From Bacteroidota bacterium (lineage in GTDB: Bacteria; Bacteroidota; Bacteroidia; CAILMK01; JAAYUY01), in NCBI GenBank assembly GCA_018698135.1, contig JABINZ010000192.1, positions 3,237 through 67,236 of the forward strand: a stretch of DNA of 64,000 nucleotides. Direction: 5' to 3'. Under the pieces are notes generated by a model. The model saw nothing but the letters and a program-made list of their open reading frames with translations. It was not told the origin of the DNA and made no database searches. Numbering within the stretch: position 1 is the first letter of the stretch; each line of letters begins with the position of its first letter. The translations under genes were made by a program, and so were the position numbers. Below, piece by piece: positions 16,105-28,752 of this stretch.

Positions 16105-16725
16105 ATGATTAAAAAAATAATCAAAAAAGCAGAGTATATTTCAAGTCAGCCAACATGGAAAACATTAGTATTTGAAAAAAGTCATGAATATGCTTTTATT
16201 GGGCGGTCTAATGTTGGAAAATCATCACTGATAAATGCCTTGTGTGATAAGAAAAAGTTAGCACTGGTTTCAAAAAAACCCGGTAAAACAAAAATGCTTA
16301 ATTTGTTCAGGATCAATGATGCATGGAATTTAATGGATTTACCTGGCTATGGTTATGCAAAAGCATCTAAAACTGATCGAGTTGGATTTCAGGAAATGTT
16401 GAGTGATTATTTCAATAATCGCAAAAACTTGGTCAATGTGTTTGTGCTGGTGGATCCCAATATTCCTCCGCAAAAAATTGATATTGATTTCATCAACTTT
16501 CTGGGTGAAAATGTAGTGGCTTTCGCAATTGTGTATACCAAAACGGATAAAAGTACATTGAACAAAATCAATCAAAACATACAGGCATTCGAAAGAGAAC
16601 TGCTAAAAGAGTGGGAAGAACTCCCCCCTTCTTTCCGTACATCAGCAAATACCAAAGATGGAATTGAAAAGATAACCAGTTATATTGATCAACTCAATAA
16701 GGAAGTTGAATTGTTGAAGGATTAA
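16105..16725 (+). CDS. engB: Ribosome biogenesis GTP-binding protein YihA/YsxC/EngB
   Basis: 206 aa; G1 GRSNVGKSS, G3 DLPGYGY, G4 TKTD. Confidence 0.85.
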   Translation: MIKKIIKKAEYISSQPTWKTLVFEKSHEYAFIGRSNVGKSSLINALCDKKKLALVSKKPGKTKMLNLFRINDAWNLMDLPGYGYAKASKTDRVGFQEMLSDYFNNRKNLVNVFVLVDPNIPPQKIDIDFINFLGENVVAFAIVYTKTDKSTLNKINQNIQAFERELLKEWEELPPSFRTSANTKDGIEKITSYIDQLNKEVELLKD

Positions 16726-16831: not shown

Positions 16832-18271
16832 TCATCGATAAATCTGAATAGTTTGAATTCGGTGTTTCCCAATTAAAGGAGTAACTTTTACAATGTATGT
16901 TCCTTTGTTTAGCTTTTCGATATTTATTCTGTGCCATTTTTCATGTAAATCAGTAACATGATAAAGCCTGTCTCCACTTACTGAAAACAATTCAATTTCA
17001 CCAATGCTTAAATCCAAATGATAAGACTGTATGTACAGATAGGTAGTAGCAGGATTGGGATAAATCAAAAAGTCCCGTATAAAATCTACCTCAATGTCTG
17101 TTGAACCACATTTCTTTACTAAAATCTGATAGGCACGACTAGAAGTTGCCTCCATAGTACAAGCGTCATCGACAACAGAAACTGAAAAACTATAGGGTAT
17201 AGTGCTTATATCTGTAGTAGTTGTTGCCCATAAAAAAGTTCCTGTAGGATGCTTTGTTTGATTATTATTATCAGACCAATGTACACCAGCAATTTTGTTA
17301 TTTAAAGTTAGCCTTAATGTATCCTTTGAATCATAATCATTTGAATGAATAATAAACTTAGCTGTATCTCCTCCACAAACCTCTTTGTAATATGGACCCG
17401 ACAATACAGGAGGATTGTTATTCGGACAACTCAGAACAATGAATTGAAAAATTCTGTTTACAAGTCCAAGTCGAGTAGCACCACGATATACAGATGCTTC
17501 AACCATAAAAACCGTAGTCTGAATTTTCATGGGTCGAAAACGTAATTTCTGCGATTGCGCATGCAAAACAAAACCTCTGGGAAATGGATATTGATCTGGA
17601 AACCCCCAATAGTAAATAGGTTTACTATAACTATAGTTATCGCTGTAGCTAATTGGATGCCCTGTATTTGCAGGTATTTCTTTCATGGAATAGACAATGG
17701 AATCATACTCCTTTTCATTTGAGCATGCCAAATCAACTTCAATATCTCGTCCGATGCAGAAAATCTGAGTAGGCAAAGATTGAAAGTCTGGCGAATTTAC
17801 TTTAGACTTCAAACAAATATTTATCCTGGACTCCAATACAGCAGCCTGCCCCTCTTTTAGGGTCATAATATTTTTATTGAAAAACAGGTCGTCAACTCGC
17901 AGGATAATTTCACATTCTGTTGGTAATCTTTGTATGACTAAAACACCCTGGTATATACATTCCTGAAAACCAAAAGGAAAAGAACATGATAAATTATCAC
18001 AACGCGTACAGCAATGCTTGCAAACGGGTGTTACATCTTTTGTTGCAACCTGTTCTAGGATTATCTTTTTAGCCAAAGCACCCGATTTTGCATAATTTAC
18101 AGACAACAGTTTTTGCTTGAACTCTTCTTCATTGCAATCCCTGTAAAGTTTTGCCTCAATTAAAAAACTATCCTGCCCTATTTGTGTCCAGCCTATTTCG
18201 CCAGCCATAAAACTAGCTTTTGCCAAAAACCCAGTAGTAATCAATAATAAGGTTAAAAGTAAATTTTTCAT
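16832..18271 (-). CDS. Secreted T9SS cargo protein, paralog A: signal peptide, Cys-rich N-terminal domain shared with the next three genes, type-A T9SS C-terminal sorting domain
   Basis: 479 aa; N-terminal GEIGWTQIGQDSFLIEAKLYRDCN, SYSKPIYYWGFP, FRPMKI, YQILV blocks shared with paralogs B-D; C-terminus IYPNPA...KGTYIVKV... resembles a Por_Secre_tail. Confidence 0.7.
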   Translation of the reverse strand: MKNLLLTLLLITTGFLAKASFMAGEIGWTQIGQDSFLIEAKLYRDCNEEEFKQKLLSVNYAKSGALAKKIILEQVATKDVTPVCKHCCTRCDNLSCSFPFGFQECIYQGVLVIQRLPTECEIILRVDDLFFNKNIMTLKEGQAAVLESRINICLKSKVNSPDFQSLPTQIFCIGRDIEVDLACSNEKEYDSIVYSMKEIPANTGHPISYSDNYSYSKPIYYWGFPDQYPFPRGFVLHAQSQKLRFRPMKIQTTVFMVEASVYRGATRLGLVNRIFQFIVLSCPNNNPPVLSGPYYKEVCGGDTAKFIIHSNDYDSKDTLRLTLNNKIAGVHWSDNNNQTKHPTGTFLWATTTTDISTIPYSFSVSVVDDACTMEATSSRAYQILVKKCGSTDIEVDFIRDFLIYPNPATTYLYIQSYHLDLSIGEIELFSVSGDRLYHVTDLHEKWHRINIEKLNKGTYIVKVTPLIGKHRIQTIQIYR

Positions 18272-18302
18272 CTGATGAAAATATTTATGTTGATTTCAAA
18301 AT

Positions 18303-21194
18303 CTATTCTATTAATATTCGCCTACTAAGCTGAAATTCATTCAAATCCAACTGAAGAAAGTAAATTCCTTGTTTCAGACCAATAACATCTATTGTACAAG
18401 GTAATTTAGCATTATTATCCGACAACACTTTCATACCTACGGTATTAAATATTGAAATTGATTGACAATTAGTAATTTTTCCAACATCAATGAATAACTT
18501 ATCTGATACTGGATTGGGATAAATTGTAACGAATTGTTCGTGATTTTCATGTAGCGAGCTGAAAACTTCTATCAATTGCTCTTTTGTCAATTCACCAATA
18601 CAGGTTGAATCACTGATAGCTATTAGTTTTACATCCAGCAATCCTTGATTAAGATAAGTATGAGATGGATGCTCGAAAAACGAACTATCTCCATCACCAA
18701 AATACCATAAATAATTAGTAATTATACCAGAGCTTATACTACTTTGATTTATAAACTGAACCTGCAAAGGCAGAGTTCCTGTATCTTTATCAGCTACAAA
18801 GTCTACAATCGGTAGAGGATTCAAATTAAAATAGATTTCCTTGCTATTTGCACAACCATTGGAATCACTAACTTTATATACTAATGGGTTCGTTGAATTT
18901 GATTTAGATGGATTGAAAAAATGATCAAAACCAATTCCTGTGCTACCACTCCAAATTCCTCCATCAGGCGAAACATAAGGTTCCAAGTCAAGGTATTCAT
19001 CTTCATCGCAAAAACTAAATGCTTGAATAATATTGATTTTAGGATAATCTTTTATCGCAACAGTTGTTTTGTCGAAAGTGAAACAATGGGTTGCTGTATC
19101 TGTATAGGAATAGAATAACAAGTAAGATTTTGCATCGGCTTTATTAACTCTTAACACATTATTCTTAACAAGTATGGTATCCTGACCATACCAGATTCCT
19201 CCTTTTGGAGATACAAAACTATCAAGAGCCAGATTTTCATCATTCAGGCAAATATCTGGAATAGGTAAAAAGTTAATCTTGGGTTCTTTGTCGTAAAAAA
19301 CTATTATAGTGTCTTTATCCTTACAGCCATTTTCATTAATCGCTTCACAACTAAAAGTACCGGGCATGTAAACAATAATACTTTCTGTATGTCCTTTGGG
19401 GCAAGTGCAAGACAAATCCAGCCAATTAAAAGATGAAATTATATGACCTTCATCAAATTGGGGTGTAGCACTCAGTTCTACTGGATTACCAGGGCAGGTA
19501 ATTGTATCCTGAGATAGAGAAATATTGAAGTCATCGACTTTAATCCACATGCTATCTGTATCGGAAAACATTGAATCTCTTACTTCTAAAATTACAAGTG
19601 TATCCTTTACCAAAGAATTTAGTTGCAAAAAAGATGTTGAATCTCCAGTACTCCATATATAACTGACATGGCTAAGTGAGTCCGAAACTATAGGAGTAAT
19701 TGAAATGCTCCCATTCTTACAAATTACTGTGTCATTCGGTAATTCAACTTTAATTTTTTTCAGAATTTCTAACGTATCAAAATAAGCTTTTGTACATCCA
19801 CTTCCTTCCACTTCCAATCTGATTGGATATGAGCCAATACTATTTATAATTAAAAAATAATCAGCATTCGACTTTACATGCTTGTTATTAACATACAATT
19901 TGTAGGATATGACACTTTTTGTATTGATTGCTTTTAATTCATATTTATTTATTCCAACATGTAAGATCTCTATTTCGGCCTTTGGTGAAGGTTCAACATA
20001 TATCAAATAAGATTTTGAGGATTGCCCATAAGCTGGACACTTATTGTCATATATCTGTAACGTAAGCGTATAAGGGTTTACAGAAATATCTGAGCTATCT
20101 GTTTGCCAATATAAAGTACCACTTGCTTTCCTAGTTGTTAAATTGTTATCTGACCATGTGCTCCCTGCTGGTTTTTGAATTAATTTATATTGAACAGTAT
20201 CATGGAAGTCAGTATCAGTATATAAAACTGGTAGTACTAGATTATTACCTGCACAAATTCGTAATGTGTTTAAGTTAGAAAATCGAGGCTTATTATTTTG
20301 AGGACATGAAATAACCTGAAAAGCTATGTCTCGATTAACTTCCCCTATTTTCACATACACTCCACTAATTTTTCGCCATTCAATTACTTTTAACATTAAG
20401 AATGTGCTTTCAATTTTCATTGGTCGAAATTCGATATCTCCAGTTTGCTTGTTAAGACGAAAGCCAGTACCATGTGGTAATGTGGCATTTGCATTTGGGA
20501 ATCCCCAGAAATACAATGGTTTATCATAACTATAACTGCCCGAATAACTTATAGTAGTACCATAACTATTACGTGGTTGGTTAAGCTCATACGAAATTGA
20601 ATCCGACAAATTGCCGATGGAATCTCTATCCTGATCATTTGCTCCAATATTGTAATGAAAATCAGTACCAATACAACCTAATAAGATAGGATCATTCATT
20701 AATTGTGGGCTATTATCGCAAGGACTTAAACATCGATTTAATACTGAATAAACAAAAACGCCTACTCCTCCACTGGATAAATTTGATGTGCCAACTCTTG
20801 AATCCCCATAGTTCTCAAACCTGATTTCACAAATACTACCAACATTTCCAAGATAAACTACTTTGAGGGCAATCTTTTTTTCTATTCCATATGGAAAAGT
20901 TGAATTACCATTACACCTTGAATCAATGCTTGAACAAATGGGAGTAATATCAACTGTAGAAGAAAATGCTAATGATTCAGACCTGATCAACGTGTTAGTA
21001 CTATGATCTCTAATATTAAGTGTATTTGTTGAACCTTGAATCCCATTACAATCTCGATAATAAGTATACTTAACCAAAAAACTATCCTGACCCACACAAG
21101 TCCAAGTAATATCAGAACCATATTGATGGGTGGCTTTTGCAAAAAAACTTAAGGATACAATTAATAAAACAAAAAACAACTTTCTCATAATCAT
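18303..21194 (-). CDS. Secreted T9SS cargo protein, paralog B: Cys-rich N-terminal domain, Ig-like/PKD region, type-A T9SS C-terminal domain
   Basis: 963 aa; signal peptide; N-domain DITWTCVGQDSFLVKYTYYRDCNG, SYSYDKPLYFWGFP, FRPMKI; PKD motif WYFGDGDSS...HTY; C-terminus IYPNPVS...GIYFLQL...; 4-bp start/stop overlap with paralog C. Confidence 0.75.
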   Translation of the reverse strand: MIMRKLFFVLLIVSLSFFAKATHQYGSDITWTCVGQDSFLVKYTYYRDCNGIQGSTNTLNIRDHSTNTLIRSESLAFSSTVDITPICSSIDSRCNGNSTFPYGIEKKIALKVVYLGNVGSICEIRFENYGDSRVGTSNLSSGGVGVFVYSVLNRCLSPCDNSPQLMNDPILLGCIGTDFHYNIGANDQDRDSIGNLSDSISYELNQPRNSYGTTISYSGSYSYDKPLYFWGFPNANATLPHGTGFRLNKQTGDIEFRPMKIESTFLMLKVIEWRKISGVYVKIGEVNRDIAFQVISCPQNNKPRFSNLNTLRICAGNNLVLPVLYTDTDFHDTVQYKLIQKPAGSTWSDNNLTTRKASGTLYWQTDSSDISVNPYTLTLQIYDNKCPAYGQSSKSYLIYVEPSPKAEIEILHVGINKYELKAINTKSVISYKLYVNNKHVKSNADYFLIINSIGSYPIRLEVEGSGCTKAYFDTLEILKKIKVELPNDTVICKNGSISITPIVSDSLSHVSYIWSTGDSTSFLQLNSLVKDTLVILEVRDSMFSDTDSMWIKVDDFNISLSQDTITCPGNPVELSATPQFDEGHIISSFNWLDLSCTCPKGHTESIIVYMPGTFSCEAINENGCKDKDTIIVFYDKEPKINFLPIPDICLNDENLALDSFVSPKGGIWYGQDTILVKNNVLRVNKADAKSYLLFYSYTDTATHCFTFDKTTVAIKDYPKINIIQAFSFCDEDEYLDLEPYVSPDGGIWSGSTGIGFDHFFNPSKSNSTNPLVYKVSDSNGCANSKEIYFNLNPLPIVDFVADKDTGTLPLQVQFINQSSISSGIITNYLWYFGDGDSSFFEHPSHTYLNQGLLDVKLIAISDSTCIGELTKEQLIEVFSSLHENHEQFVTIYPNPVSDKLFIDVGKITNCQSISIFNTVGMKVLSDNNAKLPCTIDVIGLKQGIYFLQLDLNEFQLSRRILIE

Positions 21195-24067
21195 TCAATT
21201 AGTATTCGCTTTTGAAACTGATTCTCATTTAATTCTATCTGAAGAAGATAAACGCCTGGTTTAAAAGTACTAACATTAATTGTACAAGGAAGTGTTTTTT
21301 CGTTTTGAGAGAACACTTTTTCGCCTAGGGTATTAAATAAGGAAATTGATTGACTGATAGTAGTTTTTCCCAAATCAATAAATAAACTTTGTGAGACAGG
21401 ATTTGGATAGATTTGCACAATTTGATCAGGATGTTTACCTAATGAACTAAATACCTCTATCAATTGCTCTTTTGTCAATTCACCAATACAGCTTGAATCA
21501 CTGATAGCAATTAGTTTTACATCCAGCAATCCCTGATTTAGATAAGTATGAGTTGGATGCTCGAAAAACGAACTATCTCCATCACCAAAATACCATAAAT
21601 AATCAGTAATTATACCAGAGCTTATGCTACTTTGATTGGAAAACTGAACCTGCAAAGGCAGAGTTCCTGTATCTTTATCAGCAACAAAATCTACAATCGG
21701 TAGTGGATTCAAATTAAAATAGATTTCCTTGCTATTTACACAACCATTGGAATCAGTAACTTTATAAACTAATGGTTTCGTTGAATTTGCTTTGGATGGA
21801 TTGAAAAAATGATCAAAACCAATTGCTGTGCTACCACTCCAAATTCCTCCAACAGGCGAAATATAAGGCTCCAAATCATAGTATTTGTCTACATTACAAA
21901 AACTAAAGGCTTGAATCATATTGATATTAGGATAATCTTTTATCTCAACAGTTGTTTTGTCGAAAGTGAAACATTGTGTGGTTGTATCTGTGTAGGAATA
22001 AAAAAGCAAATAATGTTTAGCTTGTGCTTTATTTACCTGCAACATATTGTTTTTAACAATAATAGTATCCTGACCATACCAGATTCCTCCTTTTGGAGAT
22101 ACAAAACTATCGAGAGCCAGATTTTCATCATTCAGGCAAATATCTGGAATCGGCAAAAAGCTAAGCTCAGGTTCTTTATCATAAATAACTACAATTGTAT
22201 CTTTGTCCATACAGCCATTTTCATTAATCGCTTCACAACTAAAAGTACCTTGCATATAAACGATAATACTATCGGTGTGTCCTTGTGGGCATGTGCAAGA
22301 CAAATCCAGCCAACTGAAAGATGATACTATTTGGCCTTCATCAAATTGCGATGTAGCTCTCAGTTCTACTGGATTACCAGGGCAGGTAATTGTATCCTGA
22401 GAAAGTGAAATACCAAAGTCATCGACTTTAATTAATATAGAATCCTCATCACTACAGCCATCGGTATTTGAAGTTGATAAATGAAAGTAAGTATCTTTAA
22501 ATAAGGGTATCGTATTTAGATAAGAGTTCGTATCCCCTCCTATCCACAAATAGGATAGTGGTGAGCTTGTTCCTATAACTTTGCTTTGAATTTGAATACT
22601 ATCTCCCATGCAAATAATAGTATCTATTGGCAATTCAACTTTAAGGACATTTTGGACATTAAAAGTATCAACAGACTTCTGCACACACCCAAATTGATCT
22701 TCGACTATAATATCCAAGGGATACAATCCACTTTGATTAAAATCCAAAGAACATTTGAAATTTTGTGAGATTGTGTCTCCATTTATAAGCCAATTAACAA
22801 TAGCTGCAGGAACTTTTTTATAATTATACTCAAGTATGTATTTGCCGCAATTTTGATCAAGAATAGTAAATCCGGGTTTCAAATTTGAAGATCTTACCCT
22901 TATCTGCACTTTTTTGTAATCATGTCCATTTATAGGACAATGTTGATCGTGTGCATTGACAACGAAAGTATAGGGAATAGAACTTACTTGTTGCTCTGAT
23001 GGCACCCAGTTTAAAACTGCCAACAAACTATCTTGGGAATATTTTGTTATTGACCATTGAACACCTGATGCAAATGAATCCAACATCAATGTAAGTGAAT
23101 CATTTATATCCTTATCATAGACCATATAGCTTAATTGTATTGTATCGCCTACACAAATTTCTTCATAATAATCGCCAGTAATAATAGGTAAGTTATTTCC
23201 CGTACAAGACATAACAATTAGTTGATGATCTCTAATGGTTTCGGCAATTTTAATCCATGTATTGTTTACTTTTTTAAATCTTTTAACTTTTACGGCAACA
23301 ACAGTTTGTTCAACTTTTTGCGGATTAAATAATAAAAATCCATTTCTGTTATCCATATGAATACCTTTCGGCAAATAATTATTTTTTTGAGGGAAGCCCC
23401 AAAATGAAATAGGCTTGTCATAAGAATATGAGCCAGAATAAGTGCAATTATCTGTCAGTTCATAGGAAACAGAATCTGTTGTTGAATTTGCTACAATATC
23501 ACTTTGCGCACTTATTTGATAATTGAGTAAACTATTTTGATTTAAGCAGATTAAAGTAGTGGGATCATCGGCAAATTCCATGGAGGCATTTATTGGAAAT
23601 AAACATCTATCAAGTTTAGCATTAAGATATAAAATGTCATTGCTCGATGCTCCAGTTGTAATATTATCACTTCTGCAACACATACTGGCACTAATCAATA
23701 AGTTGCAACAACTTCCAGCATTAGATAATACAAATAATTTTACATACTCAAATTTTGAAATACCATATGGAAAAGTACAAAATTGAGGGTGTGTGCATTT
23801 ATTGCATGAAGAAGCACAAGTAGGTGTAATATCAGTTTCTGCGGGTTGTGTAATAGTTTCTGAAGCCAATAATGCACCGGTCTCACACTTGATAGTAACC
23901 GTTAGATTACTTGGGAACAATGTGGCACATTCTCGATATAGAGTTGTAGTAATCAGAAAACTGTCCTGACCAACACAGCTCCATTCAATTTCGCCTCCGG
24001 TAATATGAATGGCTTTTAAAGAGAAGCTTGCTAAAATAATGGATAAGATTAAAAGTAATTTTTTCAT
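21191..24067 (-). CDS. Secreted T9SS cargo protein, paralog C: same architecture as B
   Basis: 958 aa; N-domain GGEIEWSCVGQDSFLITTTLYRECA, SYSYDKPISFWGFP; ~340 aa ~90% identical to paralog B ending in the PKD motif; type-A CTD. Confidence 0.75.
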   Translation of the reverse strand: MKKLLLILSIILASFSLKAIHITGGEIEWSCVGQDSFLITTTLYRECATLFPSNLTVTIKCETGALLASETITQPAETDITPTCASSCNKCTHPQFCTFPYGISKFEYVKLFVLSNAGSCCNLLISASMCCRSDNITTGASSNDILYLNAKLDRCLFPINASMEFADDPTTLICLNQNSLLNYQISAQSDIVANSTTDSVSYELTDNCTYSGSYSYDKPISFWGFPQKNNYLPKGIHMDNRNGFLLFNPQKVEQTVVAVKVKRFKKVNNTWIKIAETIRDHQLIVMSCTGNNLPIITGDYYEEICVGDTIQLSYMVYDKDINDSLTLMLDSFASGVQWSITKYSQDSLLAVLNWVPSEQQVSSIPYTFVVNAHDQHCPINGHDYKKVQIRVRSSNLKPGFTILDQNCGKYILEYNYKKVPAAIVNWLINGDTISQNFKCSLDFNQSGLYPLDIIVEDQFGCVQKSVDTFNVQNVLKVELPIDTIICMGDSIQIQSKVIGTSSPLSYLWIGGDTNSYLNTIPLFKDTYFHLSTSNTDGCSDEDSILIKVDDFGISLSQDTITCPGNPVELRATSQFDEGQIVSSFSWLDLSCTCPQGHTDSIIVYMQGTFSCEAINENGCMDKDTIVVIYDKEPELSFLPIPDICLNDENLALDSFVSPKGGIWYGQDTIIVKNNMLQVNKAQAKHYLLFYSYTDTTTQCFTFDKTTVEIKDYPNINMIQAFSFCNVDKYYDLEPYISPVGGIWSGSTAIGFDHFFNPSKANSTKPLVYKVTDSNGCVNSKEIYFNLNPLPIVDFVADKDTGTLPLQVQFSNQSSISSGIITDYLWYFGDGDSSFFEHPTHTYLNQGLLDVKLIAISDSSCIGELTKEQLIEVFSSLGKHPDQIVQIYPNPVSQSLFIDLGKTTISQSISLFNTLGEKVFSQNEKTLPCTINVSTFKPGVYLLQIELNENQFQKRILIE

Positions 24068-24071
24068 AGGG

Positions 24072-25772
24072 CTATTTTATTAAAATACGCTTCCAATATT
24101 TTTCAGTTTGCGTATCAAGTTGAAGGATGTATACTCCTGTATTTAATGAGCTTATGTCCAATAAATAGGGTAAATTAGTTTTTGATTTTTGCAATACAGT
24201 TTCGCCTAAAGAATTGAAAACACTAATTGCTCGAATAACTTCAGGATTTTCAAACTTTAACAGGATTTGTTCACCTGCTGGATTTGGATAAACCACTAAT
24301 TTTTTTGCTTTTACTGGAGATATCGACACATTGGTATCATAAACTAAAGTATCAAAATAAATGCGCTGACATTGCTGAGTTTCAACCTGCAGCGTATATG
24401 GATATTTCCCTGGTTTATCAAATTTATAATGCATGGAAGGTCCGGCAAAAACAAATCCCGGATTGAAATTCCCAACCCATGTGTAAGAAGGATTCTTTCC
24501 AACAATCGTTTTTGCATGAAAATAATAAAGACCTCCTCCACTGTCAATTTTGGTATGTTCTGCTTCTGGCAGAGGTTTTACTAAAATTTGATAGGCTCTT
24601 GTTGCACTCCCATTTACCGGACATGCATCATCTTTTACTGTAACCGTAAAAACATAAGGAATGTCACTGGCATCTTCTTTAGCAGGTGTCCAAGAGAGCG
24701 TTCCTGTTGGATGTTTTACTACTTTATTATTATCATTCCATAAAGCTCCTGAAATACTTCCATTCCAGCTTATCAATAAAGTATCTTTTGAATCGTAATC
24801 ATTTGTGTGAATACTGAAGTGTACTGTAGAAGTAGCACATGTTTCTTTATAATAGGGCCCAGCTAAAACAGGTGCATTGTTTTTTGGACATTGAATTACA
24901 ATAATGGCAATTTCGCGGGTGGTCTCACCAATAATTTTTTGCCCATTACGGAACTCAGTCACTTTCTCTGCCATAGATGAAAAGCCAAAAGAATCCGGTC
25001 TGAATTGAATTCCACCACAAATTTGATCCAAATGAAATCCTCTAGGAAATGGTAATTTCTCATTTGGATATCCCCAAAAATACATGGATTTATCAAATGT
25101 AAATGGACTATTATAGGTAACAATAGCAGTAGATGATATTTTTGGAGCCACCCACTCATATGATAGGGAATCGAGTAAGCCTCCACTTCCTCCAACATCA
25201 ATATCTACAACTCCATGGCAAAAAACAAAATCCTGATCTTTACAAATAATAGCAATGGGAGGATTCGTAAAACTCGGGGAATTATCACATGGAGAAATAC
25301 ATCGGTTTAACCATGCTTCCAAATGAAAAGGACTATTTCCCTGAATATTTGTGAATGCTTTACTTCTGCAACAAGCTGTATACGACATACTAATTTCGCA
25401 ACAACTAACTGAACTTGGTATTACAATCAACTTTGAATAAGTGTATTGTTCGATACCATATGGAAAAGTACTGTTGGGATCCTGACAACGTGTTGAAGTT
25501 GCTCCACAAGTTGGTGTAATATCAACCGGAGGTGGTTTCATTATTGTAAGGTTTTGAATTAAAGTGCCTGTTGATTTACACTTAATAGGCATTTGAATAG
25601 AATCTGGCATTGCAGCTTGATTGCAATCTTTATACAAGACCATTTTAATTATAAAACTATCGGAACCTATACACGTCCAGGTAATATCACCTCCAAGATA
25701 GCCAGTTTGTGCTTTTACAAAAAATGATAAAGAGATAAATAGAGCAAGTGCTAGAAAAGTCTGTTTTTTCAT
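24072..25772 (-). CDS. Secreted T9SS cargo protein, paralog D (start placed at the internal Met 'MKKQTFLALALF' signal peptide, not the longer ORF start at 25892)
   Basis: N-domain GGDITWTCIGSDSFIIKMVLYKDCN, FTFDKSMYFWGYP, FRPDSF, YQILVK; C-terminus VVYPNPAGE...GVYILQL... type-A CTD; 4 bp from paralog C. Confidence 0.7.
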   Translation of the reverse strand: MKKQTFLALALFISLSFFVKAQTGYLGGDITWTCIGSDSFIIKMVLYKDCNQAAMPDSIQMPIKCKSTGTLIQNLTIMKPPPVDITPTCGATSTRCQDPNSTFPYGIEQYTYSKLIVIPSSVSCCEISMSYTACCRSKAFTNIQGNSPFHLEAWLNRCISPCDNSPSFTNPPIAIICKDQDFVFCHGVVDIDVGGSGGLLDSLSYEWVAPKISSTAIVTYNSPFTFDKSMYFWGYPNEKLPFPRGFHLDQICGGIQFRPDSFGFSSMAEKVTEFRNGQKIIGETTREIAIIVIQCPKNNAPVLAGPYYKETCATSTVHFSIHTNDYDSKDTLLISWNGSISGALWNDNNKVVKHPTGTLSWTPAKEDASDIPYVFTVTVKDDACPVNGSATRAYQILVKPLPEAEHTKIDSGGGLYYFHAKTIVGKNPSYTWVGNFNPGFVFAGPSMHYKFDKPGKYPYTLQVETQQCQRIYFDTLVYDTNVSISPVKAKKLVVYPNPAGEQILLKFENPEVIRAISVFNSLGETVLQKSKTNLPYLLDISSLNTGVYILQLDTQTEKYWKRILIK

Positions 25773-26005
25773 AAGATTTCTGTTTATTGATAAGAAATTT
25801 TTCACTACAAGCATAAGAGAAATGAGTTTTACCTTTTCAGGAAAATTCGTATTAACATCCTTTAGTATATATGTCAGACCAAAAGTAACCATTAAACATA
25901 AAATATTTGTTTAATTTTACAATCAGACAATTTGTTAAAAAATGTCAAAATTATTCTGCTGGCATATCATTTGCCAATTTGATTCTTGATTTAAAATAAA
26001 AAAAC

Positions 26006-27457
26006 ATGAATAAAATAGGGAAACAACTAATACTACTCTTAATTGCAGGGATTTTAGGTGGAATAATTGGCGTTGGAATTGTCATGTCAATTGATAATAA
26101 TGACAAGAATACCGATGGCAACAAACCAGGCAATCTTACTAATTTTACAGTCGACCAAATTACAATACCCACATTCGATTTTTCAGTTATAGCCGAACAC
26201 ATTACACCAACTGTTGTTCATATCAAAACAACGATTGATGCTAGTTCAGTTGAAAATCCACATAAAGGCAATCCATTTTTTGAGTTCCTTGATCCAAAAA
26301 TGTTTAAATATCCACAATCAGGAAGTGGCTCAGGTGTTATCATATCATCTGATGGCTATATTGTGACAAACAATCATGTTGTAGCTGATGCAGATAAAAT
26401 TGAAGTAAGCTTATACGATAAAAGAACTTACATGGCTGAAGTAATTGGTAAAGATCCACAAACCGATTTAGCTTTAATAAAAATAGATGCCAAGGACTTA
26501 CCAATTTTAGACTATGGAAATTCGGATGAATTGAAAGTTGGTGAATGGGTGCTAGCACTTGGAAATCCTTTTAATTTAAACTCGACTGTAACCGCTGGTA
26601 TTGTTAGTGCCAAAGCCAGAAGCATTGGAATATTAGGTGGTGGTTCTGCAATAGAATCATTTATTCAGACTGATGCCGCAGTAAATCCCGGGAATAGTGG
26701 AGGAGCCTTAGTAAATGTGGAAGGAAAACTTGTTGGCATTAATACAGCTATTGCTTCCAGAAGTGGGCAATATGAAGGTTATTCATTTGCTGTGCCTTCA
26801 AATATTGTTATTAAGGTTATTAATGATATTAAGAAATATGGAAAAGTACAACGCGGTTTACTTGGTGTAAATATTTCTGAAGTAACTACTGAAATTGCCA
26901 AGGATAACAAATTGGATAAACCTATAGGTGTATATATTCAGGATGTTGTTGCAGAAGGTGCTGCAAAAGAAGCTGGAATAAAAAAGGGCGATATAATAAT
27001 AAAAATCAATGACAGGAAAGTAAACTCAGTGCAAGCTTTGCAAGAAGAAGTTTTCATTAACAGACCTGGAGATAAAATTGACGTCACTTTAATCAGAAAC
27101 GGAAATGAAAAAGTATTTAGTGTAACTCTTAAAGATTTCAAAGGCAATGAAGAAATTGTTATTGATAAAACAGATGAATTAAGACGTGAACTAGGTGCTG
27201 AATTTGCTGAGTTAACTGCAAAAGAAAAAGCCAGAATGGGTCTTGAGAATGGAGTTCGGGTGAGTAATGTTTCCAGTGGAAAAATGAAATCTGCAGGCAT
27301 TCCTAAAAACTTTGTGATCACGAAAATTGATCGAAAAAGAGTCATTAAAATTGAAGATGTATATGAATTTCTTGGAAGTGCCAAAGATGGCGTACTTATT
27401 GAAGGAATTGAACCTGATGGTTCAAAAGCATATTATGGCTTTGGATTAAGTGATTAG
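26006..27457 (+). CDS. htrA: Periplasmic serine endoprotease DegP/HtrA/DegQ (trypsin-like domain plus two PDZ domains)
   Basis: 483 aa; N-terminal TM/signal, catalytic triad context (TNNHVV; DLALIKI; GNSGGAL), two PDZ-like regions. Confidence 0.9.
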   Translation: MNKIGKQLILLLIAGILGGIIGVGIVMSIDNNDKNTDGNKPGNLTNFTVDQITIPTFDFSVIAEHITPTVVHIKTTIDASSVENPHKGNPFFEFLDPKMFKYPQSGSGSGVIISSDGYIVTNNHVVADADKIEVSLYDKRTYMAEVIGKDPQTDLALIKIDAKDLPILDYGNSDELKVGEWVLALGNPFNLNSTVTAGIVSAKARSIGILGGGSAIESFIQTDAAVNPGNSGGALVNVEGKLVGINTAIASRSGQYEGYSFAVPSNIVIKVINDIKKYGKVQRGLLGVNISEVTTEIAKDNKLDKPIGVYIQDVVAEGAAKEAGIKKGDIIIKINDRKVNSVQALQEEVFINRPGDKIDVTLIRNGNEKVFSVTLKDFKGNEEIVIDKTDELRRELGAEFAELTAKEKARMGLENGVRVSNVSSGKMKSAGIPKNFVITKIDRKRVIKIEDVYEFLGSAKDGVLIEGIEPDGSKAYYGFGLSD

Positions 27458-27481: not shown

Positions 27482-27518
27482 AAAGGCTGTTCCGAATAAT
27501 TCGGGATGGCCTTTTTTT
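27482..27518 (+). terminator. Rho-independent terminator of htrA (aaaggctgttccgaa-taa-ttcgggatggccttttttt)
   Basis: Imperfect ~12-bp stem plus a T7 run 25 nt after the htrA stop. Confidence 0.6.
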
Positions 27519-27519
27519 G

Positions 27520-27658
27520 ACTCATCCCCTAACCCCTTCTCTAAAAAATCAAAGAAGGGGAATTGATCCTACTTCAAAATATAAATTTATTCACAAATAT
27601 ATAGGAGTACAATGTGTTCCCTTCTTTACGCAGTAGAGAAGGGCTAGGGATGAGTTCC
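27520..27658. mobile_element. MITE-like palindromic element copy 1 (~139 bp, ~22-bp imperfect terminal inverted repeats actcatcccctaaccccttctct / agagaagggctagggatgagt), coordinates approximate
   Basis: Terminal inverted repeats plus an inner inverted repeat (agaagggga / ttcccttct); AT-rich centre; near-identical second copy at ~28043..28182. Confidence 0.65.
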
Positions 27659-27664
27659 TAACAC

Positions 27665-28030
27665 CTATACTTCAAAACTAATTTTCACCCTATCCAATAC
27701 TAAATTGATATCACCAAGTTCTTTATTTTTAAAGCGAATGATTCTATATCCCAAATTCTTTAAAACTGCTTCTCTATCTTGATCATATTCCATTTGGAAA
27801 TCGTGAATCTTACCATCTAATTCAATAATCAATTTATACTCTGCACAATAAAAATCAACAATATAAAACTCTGGTTGGGTTGAGTCTTTTATCACAATTG
27901 GATGCTGTCTGAGAAACTTCTTTCCTCCGAGTTTTCTATTTCTTAGAATGTTCCATAGTATTTTTTCAGCTGGAGTTTGATTTTTCCTCAAATCTCGAGC
28001 TGTGTTTTTTATAGCGTCCCATTTATTCAT
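27665..28030 (-). CDS. DUF559 (Vsr/MutH-like PD-(D/E)xK endonuclease domain) protein
   Basis: 121 aa; typical DUF559 blocks (QTPAEKILWNILRNRKLGGKKFLRQHPI; DFYCAEYKLIIELDGKIHDFQ...D.DR...L...GY...RF.N); sits exactly between the two MITE-like copies. Confidence 0.75.
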   Translation of the reverse strand: MNKWDAIKNTARDLRKNQTPAEKILWNILRNRKLGGKKFLRQHPIVIKDSTQPEFYIVDFYCAEYKLIIELDGKIHDFQMEYDQDREAVLKNLGYRIIRFKNKELGDINLVLDRVKISFEV

Positions 28031-28042
28031 GGCTTGAATTTA

Positions 28043-28182
28043 ACTCATCCCCTAACCCCTTCTCTGAAAAATCAAAGAAGGGGAATTAATCCTACTTCAA
28101 AACTATAATTTTATTCACAAATATATAGGAGTACAATCTGTTCCCTTCTTTACGCAGTAGAGAAGGGCTAGGGATGAGTTCC
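28043..28182. mobile_element. MITE-like palindromic element copy 2 (direct repeat of 27520..27658, a few substitutions), coordinates approximate
   Basis: Aligned by eye to copy 1 over ~140 bp with a handful of mismatches (ctaaaaaa vs ctgaaaaa; ttgatcc vs ttaatcc; aaatataaattt vs aactataatttt). Confidence 0.65.
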
Positions 28183-28188
28183 AAATAC

Positions 28189-28752
28189 CTACAAAAACCG
28201 CTTCTGCATTTTGCTCTTCTGGTGCATTTCCTCCGCACCACTGATCTTCTTAAGATGAGATTTGGGAATTGTCATCGCTAAGTTTTGTCCAATAACCTCT
28301 ACATGTATTATAAACTTATGATGCCCCTGTGCTTCAGCTAAATTCCCAATTAATCCCTCAAGTGGTCCTCGAATAATTTGAACTGCATCTCCAAGTTTGT
28401 ATTCCTGCGTATTCACTTCAATTTCAATATCAGATTCTAACATTTTTTTTACGGCTAAAATCTGTCGTTCAGGAATTGGTTCGGGAAATCTTCCAAGCCT
28501 GACAAAAGAGACAATTCCTTCTGTATTTAGAACATCATAGTAATCATCCATTCCAATTTTAATAAATATATAGGACTTGAATACAGCTTCTTCAACCCAT
28601 TTTTTGCGATCACTCCATTGTTTCAGAATTTTGTGAATCGCCAGATAATGCTCTACCCCTTTTTCAGTAAGCTTCTCACTAACTTTCTTTTCGCCTCTTG
28701 ATTTTGTATATGCTGCATACCACTTGGGTTCCTTATCAATAATAGTTGCCAT
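28189..28752 (-). CDS. UpxY-family (NusG-like) transcription antiterminator
   Basis: 187 aa; NGN-like N-terminus (WYAAYTKSRGEKKVSEKL...), KOW-like C-terminus (KLGDAVQIIRGPLEGLIGNLAE...); family typically leads Bacteroidota polysaccharide loci. Confidence 0.7.
   Translation of the reverse strand: MATIIDKEPKWYAAYTKSRGEKKVSEKLTEKGVEHYLAIHKILKQWSDRKKWVEEAVFKSYIFIKIGMDDYYDVLNTEGIVSFVRLGRFPEPIPERQILAVKKMLESDIEIEVNTQEYKLGDAVQIIRGPLEGLIGNLAEAQGHHKFIIHVEVIGQNLAMTIPKSHLKKISGAEEMHQKSKMQKRFL

Follow-up and report, generated by a model that had tools for sequence, protein, structure and literature searches.

How do two neighbouring genes come to carry strongly unlike N-terminal halves and a shared, closely similar 3' segment? 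The question is raised by two long paralogs, B and C, which lie next to each other in a stretch of 64,000 nucleotides (the window) from an uncultivated member of the Bacteroidota, a host known from metagenomes alone. The explanation that we consider likely is that both heads are old and the shared tail is younger, ectopic recombination between the adjacent paralogs having given C a tail of the B lineage, probably via gene conversion.

The two genes belong to a tight array of four co-oriented paralogs at 16.8-25.9 kb of the window, in the order A-C-B-Z (Table 1), which is flanked by genes encoding an HtrA-type protease and a GTPase of the MMR_HSR1 family (EngB-like). Gene C starts 4 nt past the stop of gene A, and its own stop overlaps the start of gene B (ATGA). 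For gene A the ORF list points to an inner start (MKKQTF...) near 25772 as the likely true one. This gene is 100% identical between strains over 940 nt, while gene Z is ~81% identical from strain to strain. No further partial copies of the shared segment or of the N-module were found by tblastn in the 64-kb window, and Rfam gave zero matches between 15 and 31 kb. A scan for sigma-70 promoters and terminators (16.0-27.6 kb), the consensus of which is not the Bacteroidota type, returned fewer promoter-like sites than shuffled sequence.

Table 1. Positions in the window of the four array genes and of the segments compared between genes B and C.
Feature	Position	Strand	Remarks
Gene A	24072..25892	(-)	606-aa ORF; short paralog; family N-module and T9SS type A CTD
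Gene C	21191..24067	(-)	958 aa; divergent N-half, probable B-lineage block, CTD
Gene B	18303..21194	(-)	963 aa (961 by NCBI call); resident long paralog
Gene Z	16832..18271	(-)	479 aa; short paralog; 31 nt downstream of gene B
N-half of B	19545..21194	(-)	aa 1-550
N-half of C	22433..24067	(-)	aa 1-545
Block copy in B	18568..19544	(-)	977 nt; aa 551-876; Ig-like domains 3-5 and PKD
Block copy in C	21456..22432	(-)	977 nt; ~C aa 546-871; three Ig-like domains and PKD
Least-diverged block core in B	18615..18974 (C counterpart 21503-21862)	(-)	~360 nt; ~94% nt identity
Divergent island within block, B	19078..19177 (C counterpart 21966-22065)	(-)	100 nt; 26% diverged vs 8.6% in rest of block
Linker and T9SS type A sorting domain of B	18303..18567	(-)	outlier CTD; 59 B-unique sites
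Linker and T9SS type A sorting domain of C	21191..21455	(-)	71% nt identity to B counterpart

All four products carry a type A sorting domain in their C-terminal ~75 aa (PF18962, 2e-9 to 5e-13, the Por_Secre_tail match in gene A reaching 5e-13; TIGR04183 above cut-off). The Pfam scan yielded PKD (PKD_4 at aa 788-866 of gene C), Por_Secre_tail and weak Ig/Big_9 matches only. The AF2 model (mean pLDDT 89) predicts a chain of beta-sandwich (cadherin/Ig-like) domains in residues 1-400 of B and then two Ig-like domains, and the top 30 Foldseek matches of this N-part include protocadherin and Ig chains (probability 0.93-1.0). A second model, of aa 401-963 (pLDDT 89.6), places domain borders at aa ~554/555 and ~878 and shows the sorting domain of B as a beta-sandwich of its own, preceded by a linker of low confidence. 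A hydrophobic, signal-peptide-like N-terminus, e.g. MKKLLLILSIILASFSLKA, was read by eye from the translations, and a helix is predicted at residues 4-17. By inference from these features the four products would be all-beta Ig/cadherin-like proteins, putatively adhesin-like T9SS cargo at the cell surface.

Genes B and C are joined by a single gapless BLASTN alignment of 1240 nt (18305-19544 against 21193-22432, offset 2888) at 85.5% identity. The earlier note had proposed, by eye, a common block of ~1 kb with ~95% nucleotide identity (~340 aa at ~90%), lying between N-domains only ~35% identical and a more diverged CTD. Pairwise alignment indeed reveals a discrete block and no uniform divergence along the genes; it lies close to where it had been placed, with its edges moved to those given in Table 1. 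At the protein level B residues 551-890 show about 87% identity (tblastn gives 87.7% for 551-875), and the N-halves 33-34%. The nucleotide figure was too high: identity is 88.0% in the interval originally proposed for B (18510-19550) and 89.7% over the 977 nt of the block, where 101/977 positions differ, and the core is the sole part that approaches 95% (90-98% per 60-nt window at about 18610-18969). The longest run of identity between the two copies is 50 nt. They thus form a direct repeat of 977 nt and 90% identity, 2888 nt apart.

The 5' edge of the block is abrupt, a step and not a gradient, and begins at the codons for IKVDDF. A maximum-chi-square scan located the 3' breakpoint at 18568 in B (21456 in C), where divergence rises from 10.3% (block) to 30.6% (CTD), and 0/300 permutations were as extreme. 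Both edges (aa 551 and ~876) coincide with domain borders predicted by AF2, the tract starting at the border of predicted Ig-like domains 2 and 3 and its high-identity part ending at the PKD/linker border. Inside the block, the scan statistic of the divergent island was matched in 0/200 permutations; here C is the odd one out with respect to B and to two variant alleles described below, its unique sites lying at repeat positions 372-441.

The difference between block and N-halves reflects age and not constraint, because, where B and C have the same residue, four-fold degenerate sites are saturated in the N-halves (72% differ, random expectation being about 67%) and far less diverged in the block (22.6%, 24/106). 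The comparison of synonymous divergence inside and outside the block, which had been suggested as a check, therefore yields a tract far below its flanks, one of the marks of gene conversion. Block dS is ~0.38 and dN 0.073 (Nei-Gojobori); over 40-codon windows dS ranges from 0.08 to 0.93, and from 0.08 to 0.26 in the core. The earlier reading of a recent gene conversion or recombination consequently holds for recombination between the paralogs, to which the discordant phylogeny below also testifies, but not for its date: with this dS and an island that is 26% diverged, the event is old. The CTD was likewise rightly described as more diverged than the block (61-63% protein identity for linker and CTD, dS 0.71, dN 0.27, the latter four times that of the block), although the synonymous contrast, 38.9% (7/18) of four-fold sites versus 24/106, is marginal. 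Clearer evidence that the CTD has a history of its own comes from other strains, whose B-type genes bear a C-like CTD; the linker and CTD of C have ~89% nucleotide identity to the CTD found on both B-type and C-type genes of another strain.

Relatives of the two genes place their segments differently. Two orthologs of gene B from other species (P0003 and P0004) have its length and architecture, and the N-half of B is 49-50% identical to them; the N-half of C has only ~34% identity to all of them. In an exhaustive HMMER search of 1.84 billion representative proteins, the N-half of C gave no match above ~41% identity except for a 98% identical fragment (P0130), which according to a cluster look-up sits in the 90% cluster of a variant C-type gene (P0268). 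As far as protein comparison can tell, the N-half of C branches deeply within the family and is known from this population alone. The blocks behave in the opposite manner: B and C share 87% identity here, and both copies lie at an equal distance from P0003 (65.4% and 65.5%) and from P0004 (57.9% and 59.0%). Tract and flank are thus in conflict: by the N-half B joins the two orthologs and C stands apart, and by the block B joins C.

The syntenic locus of one related genome (L007) consists of HtrA, an ortholog of A (a 497-aa gene, 63% identity to gene A), a B-type gene and the GTPase gene, with neither C nor Z. In another (L006) an A-like partial gene (76% identity to gene A) is followed by a B-type gene. 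Related genomes therefore have A and a B-type gene only at this site, and the block is already present in that B-type gene, whose architecture is complete: N-module, two Ig-like domains, three Ig-like domains, PKD and CTD. A profile search of genome contigs with the B-type alignment, in which the profile settled on generic PKD and N-module motifs, yielded 80 PKD proteins, all distant and none a close relative, and a search of metagenome contigs with the tail of B gave one close locus (L008).

Two variant alleles, X and Y, allow the tail to be examined with four sequences. Their sources are metagenome contigs assembled from short reads, and MAG bins in which strains may be mixed, so that the phasing of the alleles is uncertain. 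Repeat positions 1-540 contain 20 sites that support BX|CY, positions 541-1242 contain 79 that support BC|XY, and BY|CX is supported by none; the switch in topology along the tail is significant (chi-square p = 1.6e-20). Between positions 541 and 960 the B1 copy goes with C1 (85-97% per 60-nt window) and X with Y (100%), with 57-95% between the groups, X and Y being unphased and Y possibly a hybrid.

We propose that the ancestral site would have held gene A and a B-type gene of full architecture. Upstream of B, this lineage would then have come to possess another long gene, C, whose 5' 1.6 kb represents an ancient and otherwise unsampled branch of the family. The 3' 1.24 kb of C would derive from the B lineage, the inferred source of the block, by non-reciprocal homologous recombination of a presumably RecA type, that is, by gene conversion of a pre-existing and collinear C. 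Later and smaller exchanges may have produced the low-divergence core, the divergent island, and a linker and CTD of different history. The outcome would be two proteins that differ in their heads but have stalk, PKD domain and type of sorting signal in common, with the direct repeat as a by-product. As no C-type ortholog from outside this population shows the tail of C before the event, the transfer from B to C, and conversion rather than fusion, can be called no more than probable.

A further possibility, which we regard as tentative and somewhat doubtful, is that the locus is an actively shuffling cassette system in which the block repeats now generate deletions (A-C/B hybrid-Z), duplications (C-B/C hybrid-B) and swaps of heads and CTDs in the population. 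Three contigs suggest it. The first (L093) runs from the end of A through the C head and a tail that is C-type up to repeat position 608 and B-type from 639 on, into the B CTD, a 31-nt spacer and Z. The second (L008) carries A, a C head, a tail and Z, and lacks B. In the third (L094), C is followed by a B head whose CTD is C-like and terminates in ATGA, and then by the start of another B. The switch in L093 falls within an identical run of 30 nt, which is too short to act as a junction in a graph with k>=55, and a second contig (L095) of the same MAG (GCA_018656055.1) crosses identical runs of 38-47 nt unbroken. In addition, the C-type and B-type tails of strain 2 are 100% identical from position 541 on. 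If these contigs are taken at face value, blocks and CTDs would act as recombination handles and the three contigs as reciprocal products of unequal crossing-over, accompanied by allele replacement between strains; such live head-swapping is conceivable, though we would not expect it to be the case.

Against this stand the nature of the contigs and their sources. All hybrid contigs are short (3.6-5.5 kb) and stem from short-read assemblies, the MAG bin of L094 (GCA_018673595.1) carries several variants of gene C, and both variants are present in JGI sample 3300072015. L095, moreover, is a wild-type C-to-B contig with both of its ends at one and the same point of the repeat, which is what a loop in the graph would produce; the contig ends within the repeat are suggestive both of a crossover and of assembler error. 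Elsewhere a C gene of the Y' type overlaps the next gene by 4 nt, in the normal C-B style, which weakens the reading of L008 as a deletion. Divergence of 10% strongly lowers RecA-dependent recombination. The block is diverged to this degree and its identical runs do not exceed 50 nt, so that continuing exchange in this genome is not demonstrated. The hybrid C/B genes look like products of unequal crossing-over but could be chimeras of assembly or strains.

Conversion of a pre-existing C also has to be weighed against its formation de novo, by fusion of a segmental duplicate of the last ~1.24 kb of B to an N-half from a remote member of the family, either imported or relocated, without any full-length C having been converted. 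The absence of C and Z from the outgroup loci implies that the array grew by insertion, the lack of any close relative of the C N-half fits import, and a junction at a domain border is what viable domain shuffling would lead one to expect. However, collinearity between the N-half of C and B-type proteins extends across the two Ig-like domains and reaches the junction, and conversion between collinear genes yields an in-frame junction and a gapless tail without further assumptions. The patchiness of the block calls for later exchanges in either case. This less likely route, a foreign head on a duplicated B tail, is in our judgement improbable, and gene conversion from the B lineage remains the preferred account.

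Variable heads on conserved stalks are common among adhesins. C might accordingly be an old duplicate of the whole of B, with a constrained block and with an N-half and CTD evolving fast under diversifying selection, and no recombination at all. The low dN/dS of the block (0.073/0.38) and the higher dN of the CTD agree with this, but it is very improbable: uneven protein constraint was rejected on the contrast at four-fold sites, which are saturated in the N-half (72%) and not in the block (23%). Nor does it account for a stepwise 5' edge, or for a B N-half that is nearer to the orthologs of other species (50%) than to that of C (34%) when the blocks show the opposite. That both copies are one repeat mis-assembled or duplicated in a single metagenome contig is less probable still: contigs from MAGs and metagenomes do match the window, and others break off inside gene C, but the copies differ at 101/977 positions with identical runs of at most 50 nt, and four contigs from independent assemblies, two with both block copies (L003 and L004) and two bridging the C-B junction (L001 and L095), reproduce the arrangement at 99.9-100% identity.

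Ectopic gene conversion and concerted evolution between bacterial paralogs are familiar from tufA/tufB and from the opa genes of Neisseria. The array resembles them in having a tract of low synonymous divergence, discordant flanks and a patchy interior that suggests several events; unlike them, its tract is 10% diverged, so that homogenisation is old or rare here, and the comparison rests on unphased metagenome alleles. Programmed antigenic variation by cassettes is found in Neisseria pilE/pilS, Borrelia vlsE and Mycoplasma systems. Variable and constant segments in a clustered family, and a shuffling for which homologous recombination is proposed, are points in common, whereas here the variable part is the entire N-half and not short segments, and the four genes are complete ORFs with a start, a hydrophobic N-terminus and a CTD, with no truncated silent cassettes. 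A silent-cassette system was rejected on these full ORFs and on the lack of extra partial copies in the window.

The homologs of the N-module include many proteins of 1400 aa with PKD, Ig_7 (PF19081) and CHU_C type B sorting domains, some of them named 'gliding motility-associated' in their source. The N-module, predicted to be an all-beta multi-domain rod, is in this respect like the SprB-like/CHU_C adhesins of gliding Bacteroidota, although the array proteins have type A CTDs and are much shorter. In Porphyromonas gingivalis, the C-terminal adhesin modules of rgpA, kgp and hagA are rearranged in combinatorial fashion and pass from gene to gene and from strain to strain, which was attributed to domain rearrangement, allelic exchange and gene conversion, and their repeats break short-read assemblies (PMC5266723). 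The array shares with these genes the pattern of paralogous cargo with a T9SS type A CTD, differing N-terminal parts and common C-terminal modules. In contrast to them, it is a tandem of neighbouring genes, whose shared unit consists of three Ig-like domains and a PKD domain. The Pfam scan of the array proteins gave no peptidase C25, cleaved-adhesin or DUF2436 match, and the likeness to gingipains and HagA is one of evolutionary mode only.

Contig breaks, and possibly chimeras, are to be expected at the repeat in MAGs of this lineage, and the annotation of these genes in public MAGs should therefore be used with caution. No new mechanism is involved, and the mode is a familiar one in the evolution of bacterial surface-protein families. 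Nevertheless the locus is a clear-cut case from nature of T9SS surface proteins that are mosaics at the domain level, beyond the well-studied oral pathogens, with recombination joints at predicted domain borders and a sorting domain that acts as a separately exchangeable module. Should the hybrid haplotypes be true, unequal crossing-over would be creating surface-protein diversity in a wild population of an uncultivated bacterium. If head-swapping also occurs, the copy number of T9SS adhesins and their combinations of head, stalk and CTD would keep changing within one species that is otherwise near-identical.

The tandem T9SS cargo genes A, C, B and Z are tightly spaced: 4 nt separate A from C, the stop codon of C overlaps the start codon of B (ATGA) and 31 nt lie between B and Z. 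Each of the four proteins has a type A T9SS sorting domain at its C-terminus (CTD; PF18962 / TIGR04183), and B and C additionally carry a PKD domain. They also have in common an N-terminal module of ~400 aa without a Pfam model. The family to which it belongs is large in Bacteroidota: an exhaustive search yielded 3269 representatives at E<=1e-3, and many members are 1400 aa long with a sorting domain of type B (CHU_C). The AlphaFold2 models of B are confident (pLDDT 89-90) and present residues 1-400 as a chain of beta-sandwiches, with strings of cadherin and Ig domains as top structural matches. In these models, residues 401-963 fold into two and then three more Ig-like domains and the PKD domain, after which a ~10-aa disordered linker leads to the CTD. 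We infer a putative adhesin-like surface role for the proteins of the array.

Genes of the array and its two flanks
Feature	Position	Strand	Remark
A	24072-25892	minus	ORF
C	21191-24067	minus	ORF
B	18303-21194	minus	ORF
Z	16832-18271	minus	ORF
HtrA-type protease gene	26006-27457	plus	one flank of array
MMR_HSR1-family (EngB-like) GTPase gene	16105-16725	plus	other flank of array

The last 1240 nt of B and C can be aligned without gaps (18305-19544 vs 21193-22432) at 85.5% identity. A maximum-chi-square scan split this tail at 18568/21456 into a block side at 10.3% divergence and a CTD side at 30.6% (0/300 permutations as extreme), and the shared block is therefore placed at 18568-19544 / 21456-22432, a stretch of 977 nt with 101 differences (89.7% identity) and a longest identical run of 50 nt. 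At the 5' edge, upstream of 19544, similarity falls abruptly to that of distant paralogs. At protein level the N-halves share 33-34% identity, the blocks ~87% and the linker-plus-CTD parts 61-63%. The gapless alignment and the chi-square split bear out the shared segment described in the earlier note, but its identity was overstated: the ~95% claimed for it measures 88% over the same interval, and ~94% is confined to the block core (~18610-18969). The B/C arrangement recurs at 99.9-100% identity in the independent assemblies L003, L004, L001 and L095, and both block copies are present in L003 and L004. A plus-strand ORF of 171 aa (21809-22324) runs antisense within the block of C and is probably spurious; the list of ORFs of 150 aa or more has no plus-strand entry at the equivalent position of the B copy (~18921-19436).

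Within identical residues, 72% of the four-fold degenerate sites differ between the N-halves of B and C, and since composition alone predicts ~67% these sites are saturated. The corresponding figure for the block is 22.6% (n=106), a contrast which rules out that the block is the mere conserved part of an old duplicate and which agrees in kind with the recombination proposed earlier. The exchange had also been called recent, but this figure, together with a Nei-Gojobori dS of 0.38 (dN 0.073), shows that it was not. In the CTD 38.9% of such sites differ (n=18), with dS 0.71 and dN 0.27. The contrast between block and N-halves reflects age and not constraint. The block is patchy, dS ranging from 0.08 to 0.93 across 40-codon windows, and an island of 100 nt within it (19078-19177) shows 26% divergence, compared with 8.6% elsewhere in the block (0/200 permutations as extreme).

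The related MAG GCA_042584205.1 (L007) is syntenic on both sides of the array (epimerase, NusG-like and HtrA genes; GTPase, GDC-P, UbiE and others), and its HtrA-GTPase interval contains just two genes, an ortholog of A (63% identity) and the long gene P0004. In a second relative (L006) an A-like gene is followed by P0003. The N-halves of P0003 and P0004 are B-type (49-50% identity to B, 34% to C) and both genes carry the block, at 65% and 58-59% identity, equal toward B and C. For the N-half of C no relative above ~41% identity was found among 1.84 billion representative proteins, except for one fragment of a variant C-type gene from the same metagenome population. This pattern and the isolation of the C N-half indicate that the block originally belongs to the B lineage and that C is chimeric, with an old head on a B-lineage tail. 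The head/tail junction in C is in frame and gapless and lies at the border of Ig-like domains 2 and 3 (block from aa 551, domain 3 from ~aa 555); the high-identity part stops at the PKD/linker border (~aa 876-878). We favour an origin in which B would have converted a pre-existing collinear C; a possible, less favoured route is that a duplicated tail of B became fused to an imported head.

Beside the HtrA gene, two direct copies of ~165 nt (27506-27667 and 28029-28191; 87-95% identical), each with an internal inverted repeat of ~20 nt (CTCATCCCCTAACCCCTTCTC ... GAGAAGGGCTAGGGATGAG), flank a minus-strand ORF of 121 aa (27665-28030) that is DUF559 endonuclease-like (Pfam 1.5e-32). As the syntenic locus of L007 has just ~100 nt between the NusG-like and HtrA genes, the ORF and its flanking copies look like an insertion, possibly MITE-like; the region gave no Rfam match.

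Further alleles were obtained by cluster and context look-ups, and positions are counted here within the final 1242 nt of each gene. Two come from short-read metagenome contigs of a variant strain: X, a B-type gene followed by Z (L005), and Y, a C-type gene (L008). X is 100% identical to the B of the window at positions 61-540 and 97% at 1-60; at 541-960 its identity to B and to C alike is 57-95% per 60-nt window, and its CTD is C-like. Beginning at 541, Y is 100% identical to X over the remainder of the gene and on into Z, with the exception of a single mismatch close to the 3' end of the gene. Parsimony-informative sites group BX|CY at 20 sites in 1-540 and BC|XY at 79 sites in 541-1242, and no site supports the third topology (p = 1.6e-20). 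If the contigs represent true haplotypes, this switch along the tail points strongly to recombination. Gene A is 100% identical between the two strains over 940 nt (L008 1-940 vs window 24072-25011), whereas gene Z is ~81% identical (L008 3822-4951 vs window 17145-18302) and the C and B tails 57-93%, so that the array is hypervariable, an island in an otherwise near-identical background. In another strain, on an 8294-nt contig of JGI 3300072015, a 720-aa gene (Big_9, PKD, CTD) preceded by a partial 493-aa gene replaces the 606-aa A upstream of a C-type gene; array content thus varies beyond B and C.

The CTDs encoded at 18306-18530 (B) and 21194-21418 (C) are just ~24% identical to those of P0003 and P0004, whereas the adjoining blocks reach 58-65%, which makes the linker/CTD junction a second mosaic joint, and a recurrent one. 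It appears that the T9SS CTD evolves, or is exchanged, as a module of its own. The CTDs of B and C fall into a single group together with those of the variant alleles (59-85% aa identity); within the population that of B is the outlier, with 59 B-unique sites, and that of C has ~89% nt identity to the CTD carried by the variant B-type and C-type genes.

Three contigs with hybrid C/B structures (L093, L008 and L094) could be real deletion or duplication products, although we consider this rather doubtful. In L093 a C head is C-type to position 608 and B-type from 639, and is followed by the CTD of B, the 31-nt spacer and Z, as expected of a deletion product; L008 likewise leads from a C-type gene directly into Z. 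L094 passes from C to a B head whose C-like CTD runs into the ATGA junction, followed by a second B start; this is the structure expected of a duplication product. Moreover, the switch in L093 falls within a 30-nt identical run, which should be no junction at the usual final k-mer sizes, and L095, from the same MAG (GCA_018656055.1), passes longer identical runs unbroken. However, L095 is itself a wild-type C-to-B contig, both ends of which lie at one repeat position as in a graph loop, and all the hybrids are short-read contigs of 3.6-5.5 kb. In another contig the gene following a Y'-type C gene overlaps it by 4 nt, as in the normal C-B junction, and both variants were found in JGI sample 3300072015. 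The MAG bin of L094 (GCA_018673595.1) has contigs for several variants of gene C. Separate contigs of this bin (cluster members P0257, P0269, P0273 and P0278) carry C1-type and Y-type heads, and since several contigs hold different variants of one gene the bin mixes strains. Gene models of public MAGs at this locus may be chimeric.

A silent-cassette antigenic-variation system was excluded for the array by the ORF list and a tblastn search for extra copies within the window. The way in which the array evolves matches the concerted evolution of bacterial genes through gene conversion in general. In P. gingivalis, rgpA, kgp and hagA encode T9SS cargo with differing N-terminal parts and with C-terminal adhesin modules that are shared and exchanged, and their repeats confound short-read assembly (PMC5266723). 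Although the array proteins do not belong by sequence to the gingipain/HagA family, their mode of evolution matches.
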